Assembly: GCA_963789565.1 (NCBI GenBank)
Contig: CAWBKX010000001.1
Location: 11,004-75,003, forward strand
DNA from: an uncultured Chloroflexia bacterium
GTDB lineage: Bacteria > Chloroflexota > Chloroflexia > Thermomicrobiales > Thermomicrobiaceae
DNA: 64,000 nucleotides
Direction: 5' to 3'
Shown here: positions 1 to 13,391 of the stretch, piece after piece
How the letters are laid out: each line of letters begins with the position of its first letter
Numbering within the stretch: the first letter of the stretch is position 1
Translations under genes and position numbers: made by a program
The notes under the pieces: generated by a model
Database searches by the model: none
Told to the model about the DNA's origin: nothing
The model's input: the letters and a program-made list of their open reading frames with translations, nothing else

Positions 1-2
1 GG

Positions 3-860
3 GTGACGATCAACGAACCGTGGACTTTCGGGATGTCAGGCTATCTGGATGGAGAGGATGCACCAGGTCTGCGCCTCGACCTCGGCTCTGCCCTGCGCGT
101 CGCGCATCACGCACTCCTGGCGCATGGATCGGCGGTCGAAGTGCTGCGCGCCAACGTGCCGACTGCGGAAATCGGCATCGTGTTGGACGTGAACCATGTC
201 GAACCGGCCAGCGACAGCGACGAAGACGTGGCCGCTGCCCATCGCTACGACGGAATCCAGAATCGCATGTATCTGGACGCGCTGTTTCACGGACGCTATC
301 CCGAAGACATCATCCAGCTTGTCGGAGAAGCGGCGCCGGAGGTTGAAGTAGCCGATATGAGGCACATCAACACACCGATCGACTTCCTGGGGATCAACCT
401 GTATCGTCGCACTGTGGTCGCGGCTGGCGACGAATTGCCCCCGATCAACTACCGCAGGGTCGATCCGCCCGGGGAATATACGTTGATGGGCTGGGAGGTC
501 TCACAAAGCGCGCTGTATGACACGCTTCTAGACGTCAACCGAAGATACGCTCCGAAGGCCCTTTACGTCACAGAGAATGGCGCTGCGTTCGCCGACGTCG
601 TTTCAGGCGACGGACGTATACATGACGATCGACGCACGGATTATTTCCGTAACCATCTCTCGCAACTGCAGCGCGCCATCGCGGACGGCGTCCCGCTCAA
701 AGGCTATTTCGCCTGGAGCCTGATGGATAACTTCGAATGGGCCTATGGCTACACGACGCCGTTCGGCATCGTTCACGTCGATTTCGCCACTCAGAAACGC
801 ACGATCAAGGACAGCGGTTATTTCGTGGCCGACGTGGCCGCGCGCAACGCGCTCGATTGA
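3..860 (+). CDS. GH1 family beta-glucosidase, 5'-truncated by window start
   Basis: The ORF is open to the window edge. It has NEPW (acid/base NEP), YVTENGAAF (nucleophile ENG) and the C-terminal FAWSLMDNFEWAYGY, all typical of GH1. Confidence 0.9.
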   Translation: MTINEPWTFGMSGYLDGEDAPGLRLDLGSALRVAHHALLAHGSAVEVLRANVPTAEIGIVLDVNHVEPASDSDEDVAAAHRYDGIQNRMYLDALFHGRYPEDIIQLVGEAAPEVEVADMRHINTPIDFLGINLYRRTVVAAGDELPPINYRRVDPPGEYTLMGWEVSQSALYDTLLDVNRRYAPKALYVTENGAAFADVVSGDGRIHDDRRTDYFRNHLSQLQRAIADGVPLKGYFAWSLMDNFEWAYGYTTPFGIVHVDFATQKRTIKDSGYFVADVAARNALD

Positions 861-889
861 GCTGCCCGCGCCAGTTAGGCGCGGGCAGC
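861..889. terminator. Perfect 12-bp GC-rich hairpin between convergent genes (bidirectional terminator candidate)
   Basis: The sequence is GCTGCCCGCGCC-agtta-GGCGCGGGCAGC. It starts immediately after the beta-glucosidase stop and lies 28 nt from the stop of the minus-strand gene. There is no clear U-tract. Confidence 0.5.
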
Positions 890-916
890 GGCATCTGTCG
901 TTCGGCAGTCTTCAGG

Positions 917-2455
917 CTAATTCCGTGCGGCGCGACCGGGTTCGGCGGGGTTACTGGCGAGTGCCAGCACGGCCTGAGCCCCCACCGCCACCTCCGAGCC
1001 AATCGTCCCATCGGTATTCACCAGGACGGCCGAGGGTATTCCGGTCGCTCCGAACGCTCTCCCGGTGGTGAACCCCTGATCCAGCAGCAGCGTCGAACGC
1101 AGTCCCAATTGCTGGTTGGCCTCTACCGTCCCGGTGCTCACGATGAGCAGCTTGGGAGCATCCTTGGGTCGACGCGCCTCCCAGTCCTTGAGATCCCCCA
1201 ACATGCGTTGGCAGAACCCACAACCCGGATTCCAAAAAAGGAGGAGCGTGCGTTCCCCGCGGAAGCCGGCCAGCTTGACCGTCTCGCCCGTGAGGTCGGG
1301 TAACGCCACCTTCGGTGCCGCCGTCCCGATGCGACTGGTCGGTGGTGGCGCTGAACCGTTGCCATGGCCATTGCCATTGTTGGCTGGTCGCGGAGCGGCC
1401 ACGGGCACGGCTGGCTGCCCGCTCGTGCGCAGCACCAACTGCCGGATCTGCTCGGCGCCCATGGCCAGCGGACTCTGAATGCGTCCATCCGTCCCGATCA
1501 GGACGGCCCCCGGTGTGCCAGTCGACTGATAGGACTCGGCCACTTCGCGATCCTGCTGCAAGAGGATCTGGGTCACGCCATGCTCGGTTCCCTTGGCACG
1601 GTTCTCGTCCGCCGATCCCCGGCTGATGAGGGCCAGGGTGAATCGTCCCGCATGTTCCCGTTGCCATGTGCCGATCTCGGGCAGTAAGGCGTTACAGGGG
1701 CCACAGTGGGGATCACTGAAGAGGAGGAGGGTGGGTTTCCCGGCTGCGCGCAAGGCGTCCAGCGTGAGCGTTTCCCCGTGGAGGCCACTGAGGCGGAACG
1801 CGGGAGCCAGCGAGCCCACCGGCAGTCCCGCCGCGGGGGCGGCCGGAGCGGCCGGCCGTACAGCGACCCCATCCACTCCCGTGCCCGCTTCCAACGTCTC
1901 GACGCGGGCCAGCAAGCGACCATTCTGCTGCAAGAGATGCAGCAGCAACCAGCCTTCGCCGATGATGGCCAACGTCAGCAGCACCCCAACGACGATGCCC
2001 AGGTCTTCCATGCCCGTCCGATCTCCCATCCAGCCCACGGCACTGGTGCCCGCATCCCCATGCCCCGCCACCACCACGAACCCAGCAATCAGGGACAACA
2101 CCCCGTTGCGGGCGAGGGTGGACCAGCCGACCGGCTCGGAGTGGAGTTGGCCGAAGCAGTGACAATCAGGTGCCTGACCCCGGGCCATGGTGACGCCGAC
2201 GCCGGCGATGAAGAGGAGCAAGAGGGTCAAGGCGGCCAGACCACCCCACCAGGCCGAGGCCACTGGGATGAGGACGACCGCCGAGGCCAGCTCCGCCAGC
2301 GGGAGCAGCAAACCAAAGGGACCGGCCAGAACCGAGGGCACGCCAAAGCCAGTCATGGCCGCCCGTGATCCCGACAGATCGGCCAGTTTGGCCAGACCGG
2401 CCACCACGAAGACGACCGCCAAGATCAGCCGTGCCGCCAGTAATACCAAATCCAC
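917..2455 (-). CDS. MauE/DoxX-type membrane domain fused to two TlpA/ResA-like thioredoxin domains (thiol-disulfide oxidoreductase)
   Basis: GTG start preceded by AGGAGG. The hydrophobic N-terminal ~130 aa carry the PDCHCFG motif (MauE-type CxCFG), followed by an extra TM. Two thioredoxin folds follow, with CGPC and CGFC active sites in TlpA-like context (LLLFSDPHCGPC, LLLFWNPGCGFC). Confidence 0.75.
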   Translation of the reverse strand: MDLVLLAARLILAVVFVVAGLAKLADLSGSRAAMTGFGVPSVLAGPFGLLLPLAELASAVVLIPVASAWWGGLAALTLLLLFIAGVGVTMARGQAPDCHCFGQLHSEPVGWSTLARNGVLSLIAGFVVVAGHGDAGTSAVGWMGDRTGMEDLGIVVGVLLTLAIIGEGWLLLHLLQQNGRLLARVETLEAGTGVDGVAVRPAAPAAPAAGLPVGSLAPAFRLSGLHGETLTLDALRAAGKPTLLLFSDPHCGPCNALLPEIGTWQREHAGRFTLALISRGSADENRAKGTEHGVTQILLQQDREVAESYQSTGTPGAVLIGTDGRIQSPLAMGAEQIRQLVLRTSGQPAVPVAAPRPANNGNGHGNGSAPPPTSRIGTAAPKVALPDLTGETVKLAGFRGERTLLLFWNPGCGFCQRMLGDLKDWEARRPKDAPKLLIVSTGTVEANQQLGLRSTLLLDQGFTTGRAFGATGIPSAVLVNTDGTIGSEVAVGAQAVLALASNPAEPGRAARN

Positions 2456-2529
2456 TTAAGCCTCCTGAACGATGATTACGATGCGGTACTGTCCGCGCCG
2501 CGACGGTGTATGCCGATGCGCCGCGATTA

Positions 2530-3816
2530 CTAGCAATTGGTCAGGCATTGGCCGTAGCAACAGACACCGCTGTTTTCGCATGGAGTTCCGTTGGGTTGGA
2601 CCACACATGCTCCACCCTCACACAGGCTGCAGCTAACGACGCCGCACAGCGTCCCATCTGGAACCGAAACGCATTGCTCACCCTCGCAGAAATTGCAGAG
2701 AACGCTGCATGGTCCGCCCGAACAGGTTTCGCCCTGGCCACATTTCGTGCCGTCCGTCTGGCCGGCGCAGATCCCGCAGTTGTCCTGACAAGTACCACTA
2801 CAGCAGACCTGGCCACTCCCGCAGTCGGTGTTGTCCTGTGCGTGAACGCACGCGCCAGACGTCGGGTCGCACGTCTGACATTCGGGACAGGTGACGTTCT
2901 TACACAGGTCCTGGCAGGCGCAGGTTTCCGGGTCCTGTAACTGATCGGGTGGGCAGCTTGCCGTGCACTGACAACGGCAGATGTCGAGGCTGAAGGTCTT
3001 TCCTTGCGGACAGGTGCTGCTGACGCATTGGTCCTGACAGCAGAGTCTTGTCGGATCGGTGGCGTCGCAGGCCGCGCCGTCGATCTGGTTCTGGCAAACG
3101 TCGCACTGGCAGGTGGTCGGATCAGGCGGTTGGCCGTCTGAACATGCTGGAATGCAGGTGTTGTTGCAGCACGTGAAGTCTGGCCCGTCACAGTTCTCGC
3201 ACCCCGGGCAGCAATCGCAAGCGCCCTTCTGCGCGTCCGTGTAGGCGTTTCGTCCCGTCGCCGTCCGAGACACCGCGAGGTAGTAGAGACGGGCATCGAC
3301 GCTGATGCAGACGGTGCGCATATAGGTCTGGTACCAGCTTCTGCCGGGATAGGCTGCGGCGCATTGGGCGGACAGGTCGTTGAAGAAGTTGGTGTCGCAG
3401 GTGGACTTGGTGCTGTTGCACGTGTCGTAGCAGATGTCGTGGTTGTTGCAGGCGGGCGTGAAATCGACATTGCGCAACGGCCCGATGCGGTTGGGGATGA
3501 GGTACCGGGCGAAGCCATTCTCAGGACCGCAGCCGTTGAATGCGGGTGTATGACCAGGGTGCGGCACGCGGTTCGGGCAGAGGTCGAGGTTTGCGATGGG
3601 ATACCGCGGTTGGATCCCAGCCGGTTCACAGCATTGAGTCGTTGGATCGTAGGGCTCACCGTTACAGGTGGGAGCCGCGGCGAACGCGCCCGGTATGCGG
3701 ACCGAACGCCCAATGACCACCGTGGCGACGCCGGCCAGCAACCCCTTCATCACCTGGCGACGCGAGGTGGCACGTCCCAGAGTGCGGGTCAAGTCGTCGA
3801 AACGCCAATCTTGCAT
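2530..3816 (-). CDS. Tat-leader secreted cysteine-rich protein with group-XII-like phospholipase A2 domain
   Basis: I trimmed the start to the ATG at 3816 (GAGGA upstream), because the paralog at 6084 begins with the same MQDWRFDDLTR leader. The twin-arginine motif is TSRRQVMKGLL plus an h-region. It has NGCGPE...ACNNHDICYDTCNSTKSTCDTNF (sPLA2 HD-CY core). By hand count the C-terminal ~215 aa contain 49 Cys. Confidence 0.75.
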   Translation of the reverse strand: MQDWRFDDLTRTLGRATSRRQVMKGLLAGVATVVIGRSVRIPGAFAAAPTCNGEPYDPTTQCCEPAGIQPRYPIANLDLCPNRVPHPGHTPAFNGCGPENGFARYLIPNRIGPLRNVDFTPACNNHDICYDTCNSTKSTCDTNFFNDLSAQCAAAYPGRSWYQTYMRTVCISVDARLYYLAVSRTATGRNAYTDAQKGACDCCPGCENCDGPDFTCCNNTCIPACSDGQPPDPTTCQCDVCQNQIDGAACDATDPTRLCCQDQCVSSTCPQGKTFSLDICRCQCTASCPPDQLQDPETCACQDLCKNVTCPECQTCDPTSGACVHAQDNTDCGSGQVCCSGTCQDNCGICAGQTDGTKCGQGETCSGGPCSVLCNFCEGEQCVSVPDGTLCGVVSCSLCEGGACVVQPNGTPCENSGVCCYGQCLTNC

Positions 3817-3985
3817 GAGAGGTCCTCGCGCTATCGAACGAGACGGCCCGCGACTCACCGCCGGAACGGTCGAGTCGGTGGCGAAAACTGACGCCACGCG
3901 TACTGCGCAACGACAACGACGGTGGATACGCGGATGGCCGGAGCGATCCCGCTCGCTCCGGTCATGGCACTGTAACCGGCCGGCG

Positions 3986-4111
3986 TTACTTGGGCGTTAT
4001 AAGGCCGTTCATGGCCTGCCGCGAGCCGGGAAGATCCACCAGGTTGGCCAGATCCGGCACCGCGAAGACGACCGCCAAGTTTAGCCGCGCCGCCGGCAAG
4101 AGTACGTCCAC
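3986..4111 (-). pseudogene. Truncated remnant of a second MauE-like gene (first ~41 codons only)
   Basis: The minus-strand translation is VDVLLPAARLNLAVVFAVPDLANLVDLPGSRQAMNGLITPK*. It aligns with the N-terminus of the 917-2455 product (MDLVLLAARLILAVVFVVAGLAKLADLSGSRAAMTGFGVP). The two share a 17-nt identical run, cttggcggtcgtcttcg. It then hits a stop. Confidence 0.55.
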
Positions 4112-4251
4112 TCAACCCCCCAAACTAAGGTCTGCCTGCAACCTGGGCCAGGCGGCGCTTTCAACCGTTCGGACGTGGAACTATCGGTATCACTCATTCG
4201 GTGGACGTCGCGGAGTGCCTCCGCCGTCATCATCGCATCGCTCATATACCG

Positions 4252-6084
4252 TTAATCCGATGCTCCTCCGTGGTTTACACAGCAGGCCGCGTCGTCCTGA
4301 CTCTGCGAGCAACAGATGTAGCTTCCGTCGGCGCAGTAGGCGTAGACGAAATCGGCTGCACAGCAGGTGCCATCTGCGTCCGCATACGGGGTGTCGCAGC
4401 ACATCGACACCGTTTGCTCCGGATCGTTGGCGCACATTTGGCCGTCGGAACAACATACGTGATTGCCGTCGATGATGCAGAACTGATCCACGGAACAACA
4501 GGCTCCGCTGTCGTCGGGTGCTTGGTCGGTTGGACAGCAGACGGCAGTGCCCCCAGATGTATAGCCGCATTGTTCAGTCGCTGCGTCGCAGCAGGTATTG
4601 CCGCAGAGCGTTTGTGTTCCAACAGTGCAGCAGACACCGTTTTGGGAACCGCACAGTGTCTCGCCATTGTCGCCAGCGCAGCACGGCTCACCGTCGTAAC
4701 AACAGATTTGACTCTCGAAGAGGTCCGGAGGGCACTGCTGCCCGTTCTGGCCGGCGGAACAGGGTCCGCATTCAGCGCCAGCGGTGCAGACGCCATGACA
4801 GCAGACTTGATTCGAACCGCAGGACGTGTTGTCCGGCTCTGGATCGCACGTTCCGCCAGCTCCGCATGTCGTGCAGGTCGGACAGCTGCGCTGAGCGTCA
4901 GGTACGCATGTACCCCCATTGCACTGTCCACAGGCACCGCAGTTCTCACCGTCGACGCTGGGATCGGCCACACAACCACTATCACCCTGCAATTGACAAG
5001 GCGGGCAGCCACCTTTTCCGTTGCCATCGCCGCATTCGCATGTCCGCGGATCCTGTGCCTGACCCTCGGGACACGTGACAGGCGGACATGTGCACGTGCA
5101 ACTGTCGTAGTCGAATGTCTGATTGCCGACACATACGATCGACACGCATGCACCTGAGCAGCAGCCCAAGCCACTGCCGCACTCCGTGCCATTTGACGAC
5201 GGTGTGCATTGTCCGGATTCAGGGTCACATTCCTGGCAGGAGTCGCACTCCTTCGGGACGCACGGGCCGCTCGGGTCATTGGGACTATAAACATCGCACG
5301 GTCCGCAGATCGGATCGCAGCTCACGAGGAACGTCAGCGGGTTCACCGCACAGCGCTCGTTCGCTTGACAGCATGTTCGGTTGAACCAACTTGAACAGAT
5401 CGTCGTATCCGGCGGGCACTGGCACTCACCGTCGATACAGGACAGATCGTCGCAATCGTGCCCGCAGCGTCCACAATTCTTGGGGTCGGATTGCAGATCG
5501 GAGCAGGTGACGCTGGAGGATGGATCACTCAATCCGAACGGCAGCCCCGGACTGACGTGTCTACAACACGTATTGCCGGCAGCGCAGCACCCGTCACCGC
5601 AGCATGATTCGCCTGTCTCGCAGCAATACTGAGGCTGGCCGATCGGCAATCCAAAACCCGTGTTCGGCGGACACTGTACCCCTGATTCACAGCAGTTCGA
5701 TCCACGACAGCAATGATCGTCAAGACACTGTTCGCCGCGCGGACATTGGGCCCGGTCGCATGCCGCGAGTGCATTGAAGTAATTTCGATCCACGAGCATT
5801 TTGCATACAAAGTCGATCACCGTGCCCGTGTTGCCGCCCTCATTCTCTCCCAAATGCGATCCGCAGGCGGTCATGTTCGCGTCACGGTTTGCTTTGGCAT
5901 CCGAGTAGCATTGATCCAGCGCCGCGCTGGAGCACGTCGCGCCCACCGCGCCAGCCTCGGGCACACTGATGGAACGACCAATGACGACGGCCGCGACGCC
6001 GCCGAGCAATCCCTTCAGCACGCCGCGCCGTGAGGTCGCCGTGCCCAACGATCTAGTCAGATCGTCGAATCGCCAGTCTTGCAT
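4252..6084 (-). CDS. Tat-leader secreted hyper-cysteine-rich protein (paralog of 2530-3816, no PLA2 motif)
   Basis: ATG at 6084 with GAGGGG upstream. The leader MQDWRFDDLTRSLGTATSRRGVLKGLLGGVAAVVIGRS is near-identical to the paralog. I count about 96 Cys in ~610 aa. It shares modules with the paralog (ECGSGLGCCSGAC vs DCGSGQVCCSGTC; CPEGQAQDPRTCEC vs CPPDQLQDPETCAC). Confidence 0.8.
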   Translation of the reverse strand: MQDWRFDDLTRSLGTATSRRGVLKGLLGGVAAVVIGRSISVPEAGAVGATCSSAALDQCYSDAKANRDANMTACGSHLGENEGGNTGTVIDFVCKMLVDRNYFNALAACDRAQCPRGEQCLDDHCCRGSNCCESGVQCPPNTGFGLPIGQPQYCCETGESCCGDGCCAAGNTCCRHVSPGLPFGLSDPSSSVTCSDLQSDPKNCGRCGHDCDDLSCIDGECQCPPDTTICSSWFNRTCCQANERCAVNPLTFLVSCDPICGPCDVYSPNDPSGPCVPKECDSCQECDPESGQCTPSSNGTECGSGLGCCSGACVSIVCVGNQTFDYDSCTCTCPPVTCPEGQAQDPRTCECGDGNGKGGCPPCQLQGDSGCVADPSVDGENCGACGQCNGGTCVPDAQRSCPTCTTCGAGGTCDPEPDNTSCGSNQVCCHGVCTAGAECGPCSAGQNGQQCPPDLFESQICCYDGEPCCAGDNGETLCGSQNGVCCTVGTQTLCGNTCCDAATEQCGYTSGGTAVCCPTDQAPDDSGACCSVDQFCIIDGNHVCCSDGQMCANDPEQTVSMCCDTPYADADGTCCAADFVYAYCADGSYICCSQSQDDAACCVNHGGASD

Positions 6085-6289
6085 TCCCGTCCCCTCAGAC
6101 CACCGCCCGCGCTCAATCGAATTGCCGTCCGTGGCAAGTCGCCCACGTCGTTCCTGTGTTCCGACGTCCTGAACCGTGATCAAGCATTCCAGTAACGGTT
6201 TGCCGACCACGTAATGGACGAATCGTGTCGCGGATACGGTGGTGAAATCTTCGCGCGACCTACTCTCCCCGTTTGAGGGTACACATTGG

Positions 6290-6311
6290 GCGTTATTTGA
6301 GCGTTATTTGC
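6290..6311. repeat. Tandem direct repeat GCGTTATTTGA/GCGTTATTTGC in an AT-rich divergent intergenic region
   Basis: Two 10-11-nt copies sit head to tail (about one helical turn), ~205 bp upstream of the Cys-rich gene start. The local base composition is visibly lower in GC than the flanks. Confidence 0.4.
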
Positions 6312-6680
6312 CACGTCCATTCTCGAATTGACACATTCATGTATTTCTCGAAAAGCATTCCACTGAACGCACCAGGCACAATAAGCTGATTGTCGTTTCT
6401 GGACTGATTTTCACGTTCCGGCGCACCGGCATTTTGCTTGAGCGCCAAATGAACAAACGGCACCCAGGTATCTGCAAAATCCGACAGCACCACTAACACG
6501 AAAATAACGCTCCATTGTTATGGTGAGCAATTAGGGGCACCGACTTTCGGACTCGGTGGGCCATTTTGCCGTCAAATCAGGGAACATCGGCTTTTTACGC
6601 GTTGGCGGACCTGGAAGCAAACGCGCGTATGGCTTTCAGGTGACGGGCCGGTGAGTCTGTCGGTAAGGGATAGGGAATAC

Positions 6681-9215
6681 ATGATTCAACGCGTTGGGCG
6701 CTGGCTCGGGGTGCTTCTCCTGGTAAGCGGCCTGGTGGGTGCCGTCATGCCAGCAAATGCGCTTGCCGCCACCAGCCACTACTACACGCTCCAGGTGCTG
6801 CCGATGCCGTCGGGCACCGATGGGTGGCAAATGGGAGGCAGTATTGTCGACGACGCTGAGGACGTCGTGAGTGCCGCGACTGAGCCCGGGAATTTTCAGC
6901 ATGTGCTGATCTGGAAGAGCGGATCCAGTTCGGCTATCCAACCGGCGAGCTACGCCGAACTGGTGAACGTGACACACGGCGGAACGGTCCTCTACTGGAA
7001 TCTTTCCGACGGCCAGTTGCATCAATACGTCATTTCCACCAGTACCGACTCGCTGGCGACCAACGTGCTCCTAGGTGCGGCCGCCATGAACGCGTCTCAA
7101 GTAATGGTCGGCACGTATCTGCCGTCGAATAGTCAGATTCCTGCCGCCGGTAAGGCACCACTCGGTTCGACCAACGTGAACCAGATCACTGATCTCGGAT
7201 TCGGCATCGACTCGGGTGCCAATGACATCAACGATTCCGGTGACGTGGTCGGCTACGGATCGTGTTCAACCGCAACGCAATGTGCTTACTACTACGATCA
7301 CTCGACGCACACGGCGACGTCGCTCGGTCCAGACGGCAGCGATCAAACCGCGACCATGCAGGCGATCGCGATCAACGCATCAGGAGAAGCGGCCGGTAAC
7401 TCGTGGTTCAACTACGGCTACAACCGTCCACCCTTCAAATACACAAAAGCTGGGGGAGTCGAGTTTCTGGGTATGGGGACATCGCCCACCGGCATCGCGA
7501 ATGACATCAATTCCGCGGGCGATATCGTGGGCCAGGTCACCGGCTTGGGCGCCGTCCTCTGGCCCTCCGACTCGACCGACCCCATCGAGCTGAGCAAACA
7601 GATCGTCCTTAGCAATCTCACCGGGTGGAGCCTCGATTACGGGGAGTCAATCAACGACGATGGCGTCATCACGGCACTCGGCTCGCTGAGTGGCCAGTCG
7701 ACCACATTCGTACTTGCTCCAGCACTCGACGGGACCGCACCGAGGAGCACCGGGACAATCGTTGATGGGTCCGACACGCTTGCGACCCCGAACGGCGCGG
7801 GCTGGTACAACGACTCCACGCTGAAGCTCCGAATTCAGGTCCAGGACAACGAAGACGGATTCGGAGTCAAAAATCTGACGCTGACCGTCAACAGTAGTAC
7901 GTCAACGCTCGCCACGGGCAATAACGGCCAACCGTTCGATGCCGTTACATTCTCGGAAGGCACCAACTCAGTCAGCTACTACGGTACAGACCTCGCAGGT
8001 AACTCCGAGACTGCTCACAATCTCACTGTCAAATACGACAAGACCGCGCCAACCTTTGATTGTGTCGGGGTTCCGACAGGTTGGACCAAGGGAAATATAG
8101 ACGTCACGTGTACACCCATCGACACGGTTTCTGGCGTCGCCAGCCCAATCGGCACCTTCAATCTCTCGACAAACGTTCCGGACGGCACGGAGACGGACGC
8201 CGCGACGAGCAACTCAGTCACGGTGTGTGATGTCGCCGACAACTGTTCTGACGCGCAGCTCAGCGGATTGATGATCGACAACAAGGCACCCGACGTCAGT
8301 TGCGCTGCGACCGACGACGCATGGCACGGCAGTGACGTCGTCCTGAACTGCACGTCAACGGACTCGGGTTCCGGTCTGGCAAACGACTCGGATGCACAGT
8401 TCACCTTATCGACCAACGTCGCCAGTGGCAGCGAGACCGACACCGCCGGCACCGACAGTCGGCAGGTCTGCGACGCCGTCAACAACTGCGTCACGGTTGG
8501 ACCGTTTGGGCCGGTCAAGGTTGACAAGAAAGGTCCGGACCTCAGCGGCGCTCCGACCAGTGCCGCCAATGAAAACGGCTGGTACGACCAGTCCGTGACC
8601 ATTCACTGGACGTGCTCGGATGCCGGTTCAGGCGTCAATGCGTGCCCGGATGACAAGCAAATCACAACAGAAGGCACCGGACTGACTGCGTCAGCAAACG
8701 CCGTCGATAACGTCGGCAACCAAACCACGGCGGACAGCAGCCCAGGCGTGAACATCGATTTGACGGCGCCCACGGTGTCATATACCGGCAATCAGGGGAC
8801 ATACAGCGTTGATCAGACGGTCAACATTGCCTGCAACGCCAACGACGCGCTCTCTGGGATCGACACGTCCAATTGCCAGGACATCAACGGCCCCGCGTGG
8901 TCGTTCGCACTGGGTTCCAACGAATACCGTGCGTCGGCGATCGATAAGGCCGGCAACGTCGGCAATGGCAATGTCAGCTTCACCGTCTCGGTGACGCCGG
9001 ACAGTTTGTGCGCCTTGACCAAGCAGATGGTCCGGAACAAGACGAGCGGGACGCTTCTGTGCCAGCCCTTGATCGGCGCGAAGTTCGCCGAATCAATGCA
9101 CATTCCGTTCGTGAAGCACATGTACGTTCAGGTCTATGTCATCAAGGTCAAAATGGAGTGGAGCCTAACTCCGAGCCAGAAGTCGACGCTGATCCGGCTC
9201 GCGCGAGGTTTGTAG
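6681..9215 (+). CDS. Large secreted protein: HAF-type extracellular repeats plus about five Ig-like repeats and a helical C-terminal tail
   Basis: ATG at 6681. The signal peptide is MIQRVGRWLGVLLLVSGLVGAVMPANALA. It has repeated xINDSGDVVGYG / AINASGEAAGNS / DINSAGDIVGQV / SINDDGVITALGS units. Repeated D(K/N/L)(T/K)(A/G)P ... C(T/S)..D..SG(V/L/I) modules follow. Confidence 0.75.
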   Translation: MIQRVGRWLGVLLLVSGLVGAVMPANALAATSHYYTLQVLPMPSGTDGWQMGGSIVDDAEDVVSAATEPGNFQHVLIWKSGSSSAIQPASYAELVNVTHGGTVLYWNLSDGQLHQYVISTSTDSLATNVLLGAAAMNASQVMVGTYLPSNSQIPAAGKAPLGSTNVNQITDLGFGIDSGANDINDSGDVVGYGSCSTATQCAYYYDHSTHTATSLGPDGSDQTATMQAIAINASGEAAGNSWFNYGYNRPPFKYTKAGGVEFLGMGTSPTGIANDINSAGDIVGQVTGLGAVLWPSDSTDPIELSKQIVLSNLTGWSLDYGESINDDGVITALGSLSGQSTTFVLAPALDGTAPRSTGTIVDGSDTLATPNGAGWYNDSTLKLRIQVQDNEDGFGVKNLTLTVNSSTSTLATGNNGQPFDAVTFSEGTNSVSYYGTDLAGNSETAHNLTVKYDKTAPTFDCVGVPTGWTKGNIDVTCTPIDTVSGVASPIGTFNLSTNVPDGTETDAATSNSVTVCDVADNCSDAQLSGLMIDNKAPDVSCAATDDAWHGSDVVLNCTSTDSGSGLANDSDAQFTLSTNVASGSETDTAGTDSRQVCDAVNNCVTVGPFGPVKVDKKGPDLSGAPTSAANENGWYDQSVTIHWTCSDAGSGVNACPDDKQITTEGTGLTASANAVDNVGNQTTADSSPGVNIDLTAPTVSYTGNQGTYSVDQTVNIACNANDALSGIDTSNCQDINGPAWSFALGSNEYRASAIDKAGNVGNGNVSFTVSVTPDSLCALTKQMVRNKTSGTLLCQPLIGAKFAESMHIPFVKHMYVQVYVIKVKMEWSLTPSQKSTLIRLARGL

Positions 9216-9221
9216 GGACCA

Positions 9222-9258
9222 GGATGTGCCCGGACGACAGGTCTCTCCGGGTACATCC
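9222..9258 (+). terminator. Hairpin terminator candidate after the HAF-repeat gene
   Basis: The sequence is GGATGTGCCCGGA-11 nt-TCCGGGTACATCC. This is a 13-bp stem with one mismatch, 7 nt after the stop, followed by TCTT. Confidence 0.4.
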
Positions 9259-9476
9259 TCTTGGTGAACGGCGGCAGACGACCTATCTCGAGTTTCGTCT
9301 GTCGCCCTTTTTCACCGGAGCGTCAGCCTGAGTCGTTGCTCAGCGATCGACGCTGCCAAAACCGTCTGTTCAATACCCAATTCGATCCACCATTTCCAGG
9401 CAGCGTCGAATCGCTGTTCTCCAATCGCCGCGCACAGTCATTGCCGCGATCGAATTCTCGCTGCTCGGACTAGACG

Positions 9477-11003
9477 CTACGAATCCGCCCAGAACCGCGA
9501 GTTTCGACCCGATTGATCGTTTCCCTGGTTCTCCGACTCGCTCTGTTCCAACATACGCGCTTGCGCAAACCCAAGGATCGTGACGAAGACCACCCCCCCG
9601 ATCAGATTTCCCAGGAGTGCGGGAACGAAGTTGCCCGTGAACCAGTCTCCTATGGAGATCGGAGCGCCTAGCATCATGGCCGTGAAGATTTCCGGTGCCG
9701 AAATGACCACGTGGTTGAAGTGAGCCGCCACGATCAGGAAGCCGGTCATCCAGATGATGACCAATCGTGGTCCGAGACCGGTGGCTGCCAGAATCAACCA
9801 GGTCATGATCGTCATGAGCCATCCAGCAAAGATGGCTTTCATAAAGGCATCCCAGAACGGGTAGTTGACCTTGTCCACCGCGACCTGTTTGAGAAAATCG
9901 GCCGAAGGACCGCTCAGCACGCCAGTGCGGCTCATGAGGAATGCCGCGATGACGCTTCCCACCATGTTGAAGAACAGAACGTAGCCCCACAGCTCCAGCA
10001 GATCTCGAAGCGTGCCCCGACCGCGGATGACTCCCGTGATTGGAAACAGGAAATTCTCAGTGAAAAGCTCGCCCTTGCCCACCAGCACGATGACGAATCC
10101 GATGGGGAATACGAAGGCTGCCAACCACTGCGCGCGTTCGAATCCAAGACTCGCCATCCACGGTCCAGCGGTCCATGACATGGCGATGGCTCCGAAGCTC
10201 ACACCAAACGCTCCGAGCAGAGCGGTGATCGCGTGCGCCGGATTGAGACGTCGCAGACGTCTGGCGCCGACCTGAGCCGCAGTTTCAATGACTTCCGGAG
10301 ACTCCGCGCCGAGTGCGTTTTCGCGTTCATCCGATGCCTGCTTCTCGGTTCTCGTTTCGACTCTCGTTTGCGCGCGGTCGCGCATGCGGGCCACATCGTC
10401 GTCGATAGTGCTGAGGCGATCACGCGAGATACGAAACTGGTTTCGCGCCGAAGACGAGATCAGATCCTGCTCTTCGTCGACCAACTCTGACAGGAGCCGG
10501 CTCAGACGCTCCCCCGCGCGACCAATTTCGCCCATCAATCCGTGAAGGTCGGGAGGCCCGGCCCCGTCCTGTCGGTGGGGCGGTTTGGATCGAGACTCGT
10601 TCGCCTGGACGTCGCGCTCAATCGACAGGAGCACGAGGTGAAAGACGTCCACAACCTGCGACAGCAACACCGCGGCGAAATCAGCGGCGGAGCGATCCTT
10701 TCGCCCTGAGAATCGGGCAAATGCACGACGCACGGGAGTCAGCGTCCGAGGCTGAAGTACGGCCAGAAAGCTATTGCCGACCAGGATGTCGAGCCGATCC
10801 CACGTGATTGCGTTCTCATCGGGCAGTGAAGGGACGTTGCAGCGGATGTGAAGCTGCTGAGCATCATCCGACCACGCTAGTCCCGGCGCGATCTGCCGAT
10901 CCTGAACGTGTTCAAGGAGTGATTCGTCGATTGCGAATCGCGCGGAAAGCCGCTGAAGCTCGTCGTGGCTCGGTCGCACGAGTTCCACGAAATCGAACGG
11001 CAA
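9477..11003 (-). CDS. Formate/nitrite transporter (FNT) family channel with ~255-aa CorA-like N-terminal cytoplasmic domain
   Basis: The C-terminal half has FNT hallmarks: VGKGELFTENF, FNHVVISAPE (central His) and LLGNLIGGVVFV. The N-terminal half has a CorA-like pattern (DILVGNSFLAVLQPR ... DFAAVLLSQVVDVFHLVLLSIERDVQ and long charged helices). Confidence 0.75.
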   Translation of the reverse strand: MPFDFVELVRPSHDELQRLSARFAIDESLLEHVQDRQIAPGLAWSDDAQQLHIRCNVPSLPDENAITWDRLDILVGNSFLAVLQPRTLTPVRRAFARFSGRKDRSAADFAAVLLSQVVDVFHLVLLSIERDVQANESRSKPPHRQDGAGPPDLHGLMGEIGRAGERLSRLLSELVDEEQDLISSSARNQFRISRDRLSTIDDDVARMRDRAQTRVETRTEKQASDERENALGAESPEVIETAAQVGARRLRRLNPAHAITALLGAFGVSFGAIAMSWTAGPWMASLGFERAQWLAAFVFPIGFVIVLVGKGELFTENFLFPITGVIRGRGTLRDLLELWGYVLFFNMVGSVIAAFLMSRTGVLSGPSADFLKQVAVDKVNYPFWDAFMKAIFAGWLMTIMTWLILAATGLGPRLVIIWMTGFLIVAAHFNHVVISAPEIFTAMMLGAPISIGDWFTGNFVPALLGNLIGGVVFVTILGFAQARMLEQSESENQGNDQSGRNSRFWADS

Positions 11004-11255
11004 ATCTTCTGCTTGTTTTTCGACGGATGGAGGGATAACGCGGTCCGAGGCGTTCGTGTTGGCACCTCCTGAACGGTCCTATTCCGGGGCACCCCCACGC
11101 ATCATTTCAGCCACTTGCTGGTGAAGCACATGGGGTTGCCGGAAGCACGAGAACGCACGCGAGATGCCATGAACGGATACCTCGTCGGCATGTGAGTCTG
11201 GCGCGAACCAGCGGGAAGAATTGGGGGCATGGGGTGCGCTCGCGGCGACCCGAGG

Positions 11256-13391
11256 CTAGTTGGTACCCTCGACGAGATTCGAGATGAGCATGGCGTAATA
11301 GTTGGCGCCGACCGGACGTAGATGAATGCCGTCATCCCAGAAGAGCTCAGGGTGGTTCGCGGTGGCATCGTGCCAATTGAGGAGCGCGGCGTTCGAGTAG
11401 CGGGAAACTCCCGCCGCCAGAATGTCGTTGTTTGGGGCCTCCCAATCTCGTGAAACACGCAAGTTCACGAAGATGACCCGGCGCTTATCCCCAACGATCG
11501 ACATCAACTGATCGAACTGATCCGTCGTCATCGGACCGTTGTTGCCGATATCGACAACGACGATTTGCCGAAGGTCTCCAGCGTTGCTGCGTGCTTGCAG
11601 AATCTGAATCGCTTCAGAGACCTGCAACCCTACCTTCGCGTCGAGATCGAGATTCGGAATGTCGTTCACCAGTTCATCGGCCGCACCAAGCATCACCGAG
11701 TCGCCAACTGCCGTTACCGTCGGCGCGGAGGCATAGTCGGCACCCGCCGTCGGGGTTGGCGCGGGAGGCGGGGTCGGAACTGGTGTTGGTGTATCGGTCG
11801 GAGTCGGAGTAGGGGTGTCTGTCGGCTCCTCCGTGGCCACGGTTGCCAACGTTGGGGCCGCGGTCGGGATAGGTGTCGGCGTTGATGTCGGCGCGACGAC
11901 CGCTTGAGCCGTCGGCGTGACTCCGGGCGTTGGAGTCGGCAAGACGGTCGGGAGCGGTGGTGGCGGGCTGGACACGATATGGACTTCCTGGACGCTCAAA
12001 TACGAGGGCGGCACACCTGGATGCGCGCGCACGACGGCTACACCCAGGGTGACGGTCGAGATCGCCAGCGCCCCGCTGACACCGAGCCATCCAGCGCGCA
12101 CCACGCGCGGCTGCTCCGTACGCGACTGCGAAAACGCCCGCCAAGCGCGGCCGACGCGACCGCTGCGAAACGGTGTCTCGACGAATCTATATGAGATCTC
12201 GACGAAAGCCAGCGTTATCGCCAGGCGCAAGAGGAACAGCGGAAACCCGCTCAATGAAATGTCGAGACCAGGCCGTGTCACCATGAAGACCGGCCAGTGC
12301 CAGAGATAGATTCCGTAGGAACGCACGCCCACCCAGCGTAACGGAGGGCAGCCCAGCGCTCGCGAGAGCAGGCGCGACCGAGGATGAACCGTTGCGGCGA
12401 TCACGGCGGCGGTGGCCAACGCCACCAACAAGAATCCTCCCTGATAGAGAGTCGAATCAAATTCACCGAGGCGCCAGAACGCCAGAGCCACACCCAGCAG
12501 GCCGGCTATTCCCACGGCTTCAAGCATCACCTGCGCGCGGCGCCCCGGCCCGAGCCATGCCAACCCACGTGTCACCCATCCAATTGAGAACTTCGTCTCA
12601 CCGCCTGGCTGCCAGACGAACGCCAATGCGGCGCCCACCAGCAGTTCCGCGGCACGGGTATCTGTGCCGTAGTAGATGCGGGATGGATCGACACCAGGAC
12701 GGAAAAGGACTGCCATCAGCACGGTCGACACGCCCACGGCGCCGAGGACGCCGAGAATCACTTTGCGCTGACGCAAGCGGCTCATGCCGAGTGCAAAGAG
12801 CGGCGGCCAAATGAGATAGAACTGCTCCTCCACCGCCAGCGACCAGAGGTGCTTCAAAAGGGACAGCCGGCCCATCTCCTCGAAGTACGACCTATGCGCG
12901 AAGATCAGCCACCAATTCGTCACGTAGAAAGCCGCAGCGAGAGCGTCCGACCGAAGCTGCGTCACCTGCAGCGGCAAAAAGATCACGGAATAGGTCAAGG
13001 TGGCGATCAGCAGTAGGTAGAGCGCTGGCAGCAACCGCCGAGCTCGACGAATCCAGAAGGTCTTCAGATCGATGCGACCGGTTGAACGGAACTCGGAGAG
13101 GAGGAGCGAGGTGATGAGATACCCACTCAAGACGAAGAAGACTTCAACGCCCAGGAACCCACCCGGCAGCCAGTGAACGCTCGAGTGATACACCAGAACC
13201 GCGAGAACCGCGACGGCTCTCAGTCCGTCCAGAGCGGGAATGTATGGGAGACGGGGACCTGACTGGCGCTGGGTGGCACCAGTGACACGTTCAGCCGTGA
13301 AATAGCGATCCCAAAATGTCGCGGACGCCGCCTCATCACAGCGTGCAACCTCCGCGGCTCGGCTCATCTCTTCCCCATCTGCCATACTCAT
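11256..13391 (-). CDS. Acyltransferase-3 family membrane O-acyltransferase with C-terminal SGNH domain (OatA/OafA-like)
   Basis: It has LDGLRAVAVLAVLVYH and about 10 TM segments, then a Pro/Thr-rich linker. The C-terminal VTAVGDSVMLGAA matches SGNH block I. Confidence 0.85.
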   Translation of the reverse strand: MSMADGEEMSRAAEVARCDEAASATFWDRYFTAERVTGATQRQSGPRLPYIPALDGLRAVAVLAVLVYHSSVHWLPGGFLGVEVFFVLSGYLITSLLLSEFRSTGRIDLKTFWIRRARRLLPALYLLLIATLTYSVIFLPLQVTQLRSDALAAAFYVTNWWLIFAHRSYFEEMGRLSLLKHLWSLAVEEQFYLIWPPLFALGMSRLRQRKVILGVLGAVGVSTVLMAVLFRPGVDPSRIYYGTDTRAAELLVGAALAFVWQPGGETKFSIGWVTRGLAWLGPGRRAQVMLEAVGIAGLLGVALAFWRLGEFDSTLYQGGFLLVALATAAVIAATVHPRSRLLSRALGCPPLRWVGVRSYGIYLWHWPVFMVTRPGLDISLSGFPLFLLRLAITLAFVEISYRFVETPFRSGRVGRAWRAFSQSRTEQPRVVRAGWLGVSGALAISTVTLGVAVVRAHPGVPPSYLSVQEVHIVSSPPPPLPTVLPTPTPGVTPTAQAVVAPTSTPTPIPTAAPTLATVATEEPTDTPTPTPTDTPTPVPTPPPAPTPTAGADYASAPTVTAVGDSVMLGAADELVNDIPNLDLDAKVGLQVSEAIQILQARSNAGDLRQIVVVDIGNNGPMTTDQFDQLMSIVGDKRRVIFVNLRVSRDWEAPNNDILAAGVSRYSNAALLNWHDATANHPELFWDDGIHLRPVGANYYAMLISNLVEGTN

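Follow-up and report, generated by a model that had tools for sequence, protein, structure and literature searches.

The window analyzed here is a stretch of 64,000 nt from an uncultured Chloroflexia bacterium (contig CAWBKX010000001.1). This study concerns its positions 917-6084, where four elements follow one another on the minus strand: the gene of a cysteine-rich protein (Cys2), a MauE-like remnant, the gene of a second cysteine-rich protein (Cys1) and the gene of a MauE membrane domain fused to two thioredoxin-like domains, referred to below as MauE-Trx-Trx. Both cysteine-rich proteins begin with a leader of the twin-arginine translocation (Tat) type, and the locus is considered here as a candidate module for the export and oxidative folding of disulfide-rich cargo. 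A preliminary description of this DNA had placed the elements at these positions and in this order, with gaps of 74 nt between Cys1 and the fusion and of 435 nt between Cys2 and Cys1; all of this was reproduced (Table 1). Its hand counts of about 60 Cys in 428 residues and about 96 Cys in 610 residues proved exact upon recounting (60 and 96), and the leader that it had recognized, MQDWRFDDLTRxLGxATSRRxVxKGLLxGVAxVVIGRS, is indeed common to Cys1 and Cys2.

Purifying selection acts on all three genes, whose ratios of nonsynonymous to synonymous change (pN/pS) against their orthologues are 0.21-0.22. The value is 0.22 for Cys1 (against locus L005) and also 0.22 for Cys2, whose orthologue in locus L017 retains 96 of 96 Cys at a non-Cys identity of 71%. 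A Cys content of 14-16% over 400-600 residues, kept across dozens of homologues, is far beyond chance. The fusion gene starts with GTG and is preceded, 6-11 nt upstream, by the strong ribosome-binding site AGGAGG; no terminator-like site was found by the terminator scan in the 74-nt spacer that separates it from Cys1. Promoter and terminator scans of the region gave results no better than those of shuffled sequences, and the hairpin at 3892-3912 is not claimed as a terminator, three such sites being found in the region versus 3.8 expected. The Rfam scan of window positions 1-12000 gave no match.

The remnant at 3986-4111 aligns to residues 1-41 of the fusion with 58.5% identity over 41 residues (tblastn, E=1.6e-7), and at the DNA level with 81.6% identity over 87 nt (blastn, E=3e-17). 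Furthermore, a local DNA alignment of 121 nt (window about 4001-4121) also spans the ribosome-binding site, which rules out a chance open reading frame (ORF) and indicates that a second fusion gene once followed Cys2. In L017, the Cys2 orthologue still has a fusion directly after it.

Table 1. Features of the locus, in window coordinates
Feature	Position	Strand	Basis or remark
Cys-rich cargo gene 2 (Cys2)	4252..6084	-	610 residues, 96 Cys (15.7%), 48 predicted disulfides
Leader of Cys2 (46 residues)	5947..6084	-	leader profile (hidden Markov model) E=8e-20
Relic of second MauE-fusion gene	4001..4121	-	ribosome-binding site and about 36 codons; 41-codon ORF at 3986-4111
Terminator-like hairpin and T-run between relic and Cys1	3892..3912	-	uncertain significance, not above chance
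Cys-rich cargo gene 1 (Cys1)	2530..3816	-	428 residues, 60 Cys (14.0%), 30 predicted disulfides
Leader of Cys1 (46 residues)	3679..3816	-	same type as Cys2 leader
Phospholipase-A2-like domain of Cys1, residues about 48-205	3202..3675	-	PF06951/PF09056 matches, Foldseek
Cys-rich C-terminal modules of Cys1 (20% Cys)	2533..3201	-	alignment, composition
Spacer Cys1/fusion, 74 nt	2456..2529	-	AGGAGG at 2461-2466
MauE-thioredoxin-thioredoxin fusion, 512 residues	917..2455	-	GTG start; domain models, motifs
MauE membrane domain, four hydrophobic helices	2051..2455	-	PF07291 and hydropathy; CHCFG loop at 2156-2164
Fifth transmembrane helix, residues 154-172, MauD-type anchor	1940..1996	-	hydropathy; TIGR02661 alignment
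Thioredoxin-like domain 1 (CGPC)	1451..1813	-	domain models, PDB relatives
Thioredoxin-like domain 2 (CGFC), TlpA/ResA/AhpC-TSA type	971..1342	-	domain models; PDB relatives 2yp6, 4hqz, 4nmu

Cysteine-rich cargo proteins

The preliminary description had regarded the cargo as unrelated to MauA. Cys2 has no Pfam or NCBIfam domain; Cys1 has a phospholipase A2 (PLA2)-like domain that had been missed. When isolated, residues 48-203 of Cys1 match PF06951 (PLA2G12) with E=4.9e-10 (40.1 bits, cutoff 34) and PF09056 with 7.9e-5. The PLA2 signature comprises the NGCGPENG loop and the segment CNNHDICYDTC, with C123, the H126/D127 dyad and C129. The AlphaFold2 model of Cys1 has a mean predicted local distance difference test (pLDDT) value of 75.9, reaching at least 90 over the PLA2-like domain, and its top Foldseek matches in the PDB are the fungal and Streptomyces PLA2 structures 4aup (probability 1.0, TMt 0.51-0.56) and 1faz, with weak E-values (0.07-1.7). 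Cys1 thus has, as judged from its sequence, a PLA2-like head, which is a putative enzyme. The likeness to secreted PLA2 of groups XII and XIV covers the above-cutoff family match, the CxxHDxCY dyad and the Gly-rich loop, and may extend to the predicted fold, for which the best Foldseek E-value is a weak 0.07. Unlike these enzymes, the Cys1 head is joined to a hyper-Cys tail of 220 residues and to a special leader. Several Cys1 homologues carry precomputed PF06951, PF09056, Stig1 or CXCXC matches. The Cys1 relatives (n=69) all come from Chloroflexia, Thermomicrobiales or Nitrolancea-type assemblies, and an exact-sequence look-up of the Cys1 of the window (P0001) found no record.

The rest of Cys1 and the whole of Cys2 consist of Cys-rich modules, shared in a mosaic manner among paralogues in the alignment. 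One module, CP.GQ.QDP.TC.C...CG.GQVCCSG.C, is common, although partly, to the Cys1 tail, Cys2 and other members of the family. The mature cargo contains only 12-14% of the residues I, L, V, F, M and W (12.4% in the mature part of Cys2), compared to 25-29% in neighboring proteins, and consequently no hydrophobic core is expected without disulfides. In addition, the number of Cys residues is overwhelmingly even: in 34 of 36 full-length leader proteins (p=2e-8), in 61 of 69 Cys1 homologues (p=3e-11) and in 106 of 126 library representatives of the leader family described below (p=2e-15). This points to fully disulfide-bonded proteins, contrary to what would be expected for metal or cluster binding.

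The MauE-Trx-Trx fusion and its neighborhood

Residues 1-128 of the fusion match the Pfam MauE family (PF07291) with 88.4 bits against a cutoff of 27. The thioredoxin part gives AhpC-TSA (PF00578, 81 bits) and Redoxin (PF08534, 59 bits) matches in two stretches each, together with matches to Thioredoxin-like domains. The MauD model TIGR02661 aligns to residues 155-328, covering the anchor helix and thioredoxin 1, with 83.4 bits; because the equivalog cutoff is 188.6, the protein is to be considered MauD-like, not MauD. The MauE domain with two TlpA-like thioredoxins proposed in the preliminary description is therefore borne out by profile models, the anchor and thioredoxin 1 being MauD-like and the second domain TlpA/ResA-like. 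The characteristic motifs are PDCHCFG (C98, C100), CGPC (251) and CGFC (412). Hydropathy indicates five helices, with the CHC loop between helices 3 and 4; since two helices lie between this loop and the thioredoxins, both are placed on the same side of the membrane. Across 211 fusion homologues, K23, E55, C98, C100, F101 and G102 are conserved at 97% or more. The family is very large (>3,900 matches at E<1e-10) and includes members with two, three or four thioredoxins; an exact-sequence look-up of the closest homologue (P0071) found no record. In fusions located beside cargo of the second leader class (see below), the linker that joins the two thioredoxins has an additional CP(N/K/D)C motif (L044-L047, L062-L067, L072-L091, L103-L114), which is not present in the fusion of the window. 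One fusion (L010) is split into three frames.

The role of MauE as a DsbB-like oxidase is already published. In a March 2026 preprint (bioRxiv 10.64898/2026.03.05.709764), MauE from two phyla takes over the function of DsbB in E. coli. This requires the CXC motif, located in the periplasmic helix 3/4 loop, and the quinone site is predicted to be lined by a Lys and a Glu that are both conserved. Among MauE entries, 8.2% show a fusion to thioredoxin-superfamily domains, and MauE is proposed as a generalist. K23 (helix 1), E55 (helix 2) and the CXC-FG element of the present fusion belong to the residue classes reported there as functional. The present membrane domain is, like the published MauE, a four-helix protein with CXC-FG in the helix 3/4 loop and conserved Lys and Glu. 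Unlike in the published MauE, the X residue is His here, not Gly or Ala, two thioredoxins stand in tandem (two to four across the family), and paralogues are found beside hyper-Cys cargo and, in relatives, beside tatA/tatC; the preprint mentions none of these features. The text of the preprint contains none of the terms 'Tat', 'twin-arginine' or 'Chloroflex', and a literature search for a link between MauE and TatA returned nothing relevant.

The analogy to MauA, MauE and MauD drawn in the preliminary description is apt, MauE having since been found to replace DsbB in the work just cited. As in the mauA-mauE-mauD arrangement, which is the closest known system, a disulfide-dense protein with a Tat-type leader is encoded beside MauE and a MauD-type anchored thioredoxin. 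In contrast to that arrangement, the MauE and MauD-like parts are fused here, a second thioredoxin is added, and the cargo would contain 30-48 disulfides versus six. In methylamine dehydrogenase clusters, MauE and MauD are both needed for the maturation of MauA. Membership of the present locus in such a cluster was rejected: the cargo has no MauA-type match (its only family match in this respect is a weak Tat signal), the MauD score is below cutoff, and mauA, mauB and mauG are absent among the adjacent genes examined, with a GH1 glycosidase fragment and a surface protein as flanking genes and no window-wide search for mauA/mauB. A comparable logic is found in VKOR-thioredoxin fusions and in DsbB/DsbA, where a quinone-linked membrane oxidase is coupled to a thioredoxin-fold carrier, and in DsbL/DsbI with AssT, where a dedicated Dsb pair is encoded next to its substrate. 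The architecture is parallel to that of VKOR-thioredoxin fusions, the enzyme chemistry corresponds to the MauE pathway of the preprint, and the membrane families are unrelated to those of VKOR and DsbB. To our knowledge, no oxidase has been paired with cargo of tens of disulfides and a family-specific leader.

The preliminary description had named the neighborhood of homologous genes as the point on which its proposal might fail, and the outcome was favorable from both the leader and the fusion side. In the 31 loci selected solely by leader patterns, the leader ORFs are nearly all hyper-Cys-rich (a few, e.g., that of L032, are not) and many are arranged in tandem pairs or arrays. A fusion lies within 2.5 kb in 11 of these loci, either on the same strand downstream, on the same strand upstream or divergently. 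The fusion-selected set was assembled with neighbors disregarded, from 80 metagenome loci at 50-67% identity and four look-ups, clustered at 85%. A hyper-Cys ORF occurs within 1 kb of the fusion in 23 of its 34 informative two-thioredoxin clusters, nearly always on the same strand and at a distance of 0-400 bp, and most hyper-Cys ORFs near fusions carry the leader. Within 1 kb of the fusion such ORFs reach 4.42 per 10 kb, versus 0.31 beyond 2.5 kb, a 14-fold difference in density. On one chromosome of 3.6 Mb, two or more distinct two-thioredoxin copies each adjoin a cargo gene (L009, L017), L022 holds two fusion copies, and the window contains one copy and the relic. The multiple cargo-adjoining copies per genome suggest that cargo and oxidase duplicate together.

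Some members of the cargo family stand apart from these pairs. L028 (10013-16591) has five or more leader-bearing Cys-rich genes arrayed in tandem on the same strand, and no fusion lies within 10 kb of them. Frameshifted or leader-only copies occur in L010 (10001-12976), L004 (11818-13287), L019 and L021 (9998-11214), L012 (2903-3124), L013 (2305-2625) and L022 (4021-4320); these many broken copies reflect either a fast turnover of genes or errors of long-read assembly in the metagenome-assembled genomes. The leader-only fragments of L119-L121 gave no support to the pairing, that of L119 being cut by a contig end and those of L120 and L121, which look like relics or truncated gene calls, having no nearby fusion.

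The leader family and its possible link to Tat

The Cys2 leader is composed of the n-region MQDWRFDDLTR, the motif TSRRGVLK, an h-region of Gly, Ala and Val, the basic c-region residue R37 and the cleavage-type site PEAGA. In Cys1 the motif is TSRRQVMK, and in both leaders the h-region comprises about 12 Gly/Ala/Val residues followed by R37. The Tat-type features SRR-x-V-(L/M)-K, a weak h-region and a basic c-region residue are therefore found in both proteins. The assignment to Tat at the window locus is putative and rests on TSRR-x-V-(L/M)-K, on the weak h-region and basic c-region, and on homologous modules. Residues 3-16 of the Cys1 leader are predicted to be helical (AlphaFold2). The first ~35 residues are near-invariant among very different cargos, and synonymous sites are saturated. 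Selection thus acts on the leader peptide, and recent gene conversion or an RNA element as the source of the identity were both rejected. Hydrogenase small subunits and the TorA/TorD pair represent Tat substrates with long conserved n-regions that are bound by dedicated chaperones (PMC3316669). The present leaders are similar in having a conserved, probably helical n-region before the twin-arginine signal, under strong protein-level selection. Unlike those substrates, there is no chaperone gene in the module, the cargo is without cofactor, and the second Arg is not conserved family-wide.

No Pfam or NCBIfam model describes the leader. When 1.84 billion cluster representatives were searched with a leader profile, 4,883 matched at E<=1e-3, giving a family size of about 4,900 that refers to clusters at 50% identity. 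In the library representatives the motif stands in every case at the N-terminus or close to it, the part after it has a median Cys content of 15.6%, and the cargo ranges from 30-residue knottins to proteins of more than 1,000 residues. Two classes can be distinguished. Class 1, to which the window belongs, is described by xRFD(D/E)LT(R/K)xLAxxTSRRQxLK, with RR essentially fixed. Class 2 follows SFDELA(K/R)GLASGxLSR(G/R/x)KALRL, in which the second Arg is usually Gly and the h-region spans 20 residues versus 16. Loci with such cargo include L044, L075, L076, L079, L081, L086, L091, L097 and L104 (proteins P0310-P0447), with LSRGKALRL or LSRGQVLK motifs and an AxA (AWA-type) cleavage site.

The short members of the family are precursors of ~75-81 residues ending in the six-Cys knottin pattern C-x6-C-x6-CC-x3-4-C-x5-C, two of which match the omega-atracotoxin model PF06357. 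In this respect they resemble inhibitor cystine knot peptides. They differ from other knottins in being bacterial (Ktedonobacteria and other Chloroflexota), in carrying an FDELT(K/R)-SRR leader and in being encoded beside MauE-Trx-Trx, TatA and TatC. Knottin-like peptides of bacteria that carry this leader seem to be undescribed.

Indirect evidence for a connection to Tat comes from the genes adjoining the homologous fusions. TatA_B_E genes directly flank the fusion in 11 of 52 informative clusters (36-62 bits against a cutoff of 21). Furthermore, in L117 (8001-11520) and L118 (8001-11139), knottin precursors of 78-81 residues with an FDELT(R/K)-SRR leader, MauE-Trx-Trx, TatA and TatC follow one another on one strand with short gaps. 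These two Ktedonobacteria-type loci, one on a farmland contig and the other in a Ktedonobacteraceae genome, were reached only via the small leader-bearing knottin precursors. For one to three tatA genes in a genome of a few megabases, the chance adjacency of TatA and fusion is of the order of 0.1%. TatA is found beside the fusion at 5 of 10 SRG-type cargo loci; the claim that every such locus has TatA was discarded upon this recount. A second, weaker TatA/B-family ORF, which may be a TatB-like partner, is located right after the module TatA in L075 (5895-6161), L086 (3021-3407) and L091 (6980-7363); that of L091 scores 36.5 bits in Pfam.

Two further observations concern the surroundings of these modules. 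In L091, the block of cargo, fusion, TatA and TatB-like genes is followed on the minus strand (7395-10090) by a family-A DNA polymerase-like gene and a second large opposite-strand ORF (translations read by eye); this module may be next to a mobile element. In L117, two Rce1-like/CPBP intramembrane protease genes (3462-4394 and 6778-7674) lie just upstream of the knottin precursors, whereas L118 has none.

The literature search found no paper on the leader and nothing relevant on Cys-rich Tat proteins in Chloroflexi or on bacterial knottins. The cargo, the leader and the Tat linkage appear to be undescribed. What appears new is that a MauE-Trx-Trx paralogue is paired with hyper-disulfide cargo, that the leader is extended and family-specific, that the cargo range includes knottin-like peptides and a PLA2-like enzyme, and that tat genes recur in the module.

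Proposed mechanism and alternative readings

It is probable that the locus encodes a substrate-linked extracytoplasmic oxidative-folding module, in which leader-bearing cargo is served by the MauE-Trx-Trx oxidase. Cys1, with its PLA2-like head and Cys-rich stalk, and Cys2 would be made as precursors with an FDDLTR helix and an SRR-type twin-arginine signal. Their reduced mature parts, being hydrophilic and nearly core-less, would be largely unstructured and would be exported in the reduced state, most likely by Tat. Oxidation would then take place at the outer face of the membrane by the fusion encoded 74 nt downstream. The MauE domain is expected to act in a DsbB-like manner, its CHC-FG loop taking electrons from the tethered thioredoxins to the membrane quinone, and the CGPC and CGFC domains, anchored by the fifth helix, would form the 30 and 48 disulfides and probably also reshuffle them. 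This reading builds on the anatomy and domains of the locus, the conservation of catalytic residues, the same-side topology, the even Cys numbers, the neighborhood seen from both sides and the tat genes in relatives. The direction in which electrons flow is inferred from published work in which other MauE proteins complement the loss of DsbB. The division of labor between the two thioredoxins, the dependence on Tat and cotranscription are likewise presumed.

A more far-reaching possibility, put forward only tentatively and rather doubtful as it stands, is that Chloroflexota possess a specialized export-and-oxidation route. The leader, with its FDxLT(R/K) helix and SRR/SRG motif, would be read by Tat and, in some lineages, recognized by dedicated TatA/TatB-like/TatC copies encoded within the module. 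Tat proofreading would let the reduced core-less cargo through, and at the exit site the cargo would be handed over directly to MauE-Trx-Trx. If true, unfolded disulfide-dependent cargo of up to 1,000 residues or more would have a natural pathway through Tat, and there may also be a natural Tat signal without the second arginine.

Tat is defined by the export of folded proteins, and disulfide-dependent proteins are the textbook example of cargo that is rejected unless oxidized first. Here, core-less proteins with 30-48 predicted disulfides carry Tat-type leaders and have a genetic link to a DsbB/DsbA-like fusion, which extends in relatives to tatA/tatC. The system thus offers a natural setting in which to study what is sensed by Tat proofreading and the way in which oxidative folding is coupled to export, and it provides the first candidate dedicated substrates for the MauE pathway. 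In addition, the large unannotated leader family marks bacterial disulfide-rich proteins and could matter for natural-product discovery and for the production of disulfide-rich biologics.

Several findings weigh against the proposed module, and those related to export favor Sec instead. The good twin-arginine consensus noted in the preliminary description holds for the motif and for the h- and c-regions. It does not hold for the curated Tat signal models, for which Cys1 remains just under threshold (TIGR01409, 15.5 vs 16.7; PF10518, 15.3 vs 22.7) and Cys2 gives no match, nor family-wide, the second Arg often being Gly, with SRG, not SRR, in about half of the best library matches. The coupling to Tat suggested in the same description gains some support from TatA, and in two loci from TatA and TatC, adjoining homologous fusions and cargo, but no tat gene occurs in the 64-kb window or within 10 kb in the closest relatives (L001-L036). 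Tat tolerates unstructured hydrophilic chains, those tolerated in E. coli being of ~100-120 residues (PMC6708511), and Cys1 and Cys2 are far larger. If the leader were an extended Sec-type signal with an incidental SRR, disulfides would form on the unfolded chain and the puzzle would be gone. The large size of a cargo that is unfolded when reduced fits this explanation, and so do the common SRG, SRS and SRW variants, with their longer h-regions (20 vs 16 residues) and AxA sites. However, TatA adjoins fusion and cargo in 13 loci or clusters, including the two with TatC, far above the chance level given above, and it is present even at half of the SRG-type cargo loci. Moreover, in the leader class of the window, RR is essentially invariant despite saturated synonymous change, and the h-region is weakly hydrophobic with a basic c-region residue. 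Export by Sec is therefore regarded as a serious possibility, albeit on the unlikely side.

Regarding the oxidase, no fusion is found within 10 kb in 20 of the 31 leader-selected loci, including that of the closest Cys1 homologue, which means that the fusion need not be present in cis. In L033-L035, the three- and four-thioredoxin fusions have no cargo nearby and share a conserved RsgA/FtsH/MerR/BON/BtpA context, and the two-thioredoxin fusion of L036 has no cargo nearby either. A hyper-Cys ORF within 1 kb is also present in 5 of the 14 clusters whose fusions have at least three thioredoxins, so that the difference from two-thioredoxin clusters is only marginal (Fisher p=0.057) and a pairing limited to the latter was dropped. 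Many loci come from related metagenome-assembled genomes, and these counts are not fully independent. The association is thus strong and conserved, not obligatory, and the family also includes housekeeping-like members. Together with the huge family size and the proposal of MauE as a generalist, this would suit a general housekeeping disulfide oxidase that serves the whole secretome, with the Cys-rich genes merely nearby and no dedicated partnership; given the same-strand adjacency in most two-thioredoxin clusters, the local enrichment and the apparent joint duplication, such a role is unlikely. It is less likely still that the fusion is reducing, as an isomerase/reductase or a peroxiredoxin-like antioxidant, with the disulfides made by another system. 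Its thioredoxin domains match AhpC-TSA, Redoxin and ResA/TlpA-type models and PDB entries, and TlpA/ResA proteins are often reductases; CGPC is the classic thioredoxin motif, 30-48 disulfides need isomerization, and an earlier report, as cited in bioRxiv 10.64898/2026.03.05.709764, is said to have suggested that MauE might be a reductase. The TlpA/ResA resemblance does not fix the redox direction, since SdbA, M. tuberculosis DsbE and FetE have the same TlpA-type fold and act as oxidases. Furthermore, MauE of two phyla restores DsbB-dependent phenotypes through a CXC that is conserved in this fusion along with Lys and Glu, and MauE is without DsbD/CcdA-like features. Finally, metallothionein-like or Fe-S proteins folding in the cytoplasm, and hence using Tat, with the thioredoxins unrelated, would explain the very high Cys content, the Tat-like leader and the many CxxC and CC spacings. 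This explanation was rejected as highly improbable in view of the even Cys numbers, of the PLA2-like domain, a type usually found in secreted enzymes with disulfide bonds, and of the knottin pattern of the small members; moreover, Pfam/NCBIfam scans of the cargo gave no Fe-S or metallothionein family match, and the conserved partner is a disulfide oxidoreductase.

Beyond the module, the plus strand at window 6651-9215 encodes a probable secreted or surface protein of 854 residues, divergent from Cys2, with weak OmpL47-type beta-barrel and HAF-repeat matches. Further on, at window 9477-11003 on the minus strand, a protein of 508 residues has a CorA-like region at its N-terminus (TIGR00383, E=1.5e-7) that is fused to a channel of the formate/nitrite transporter type (TIGR00790, E=9e-33), an unusual combination.

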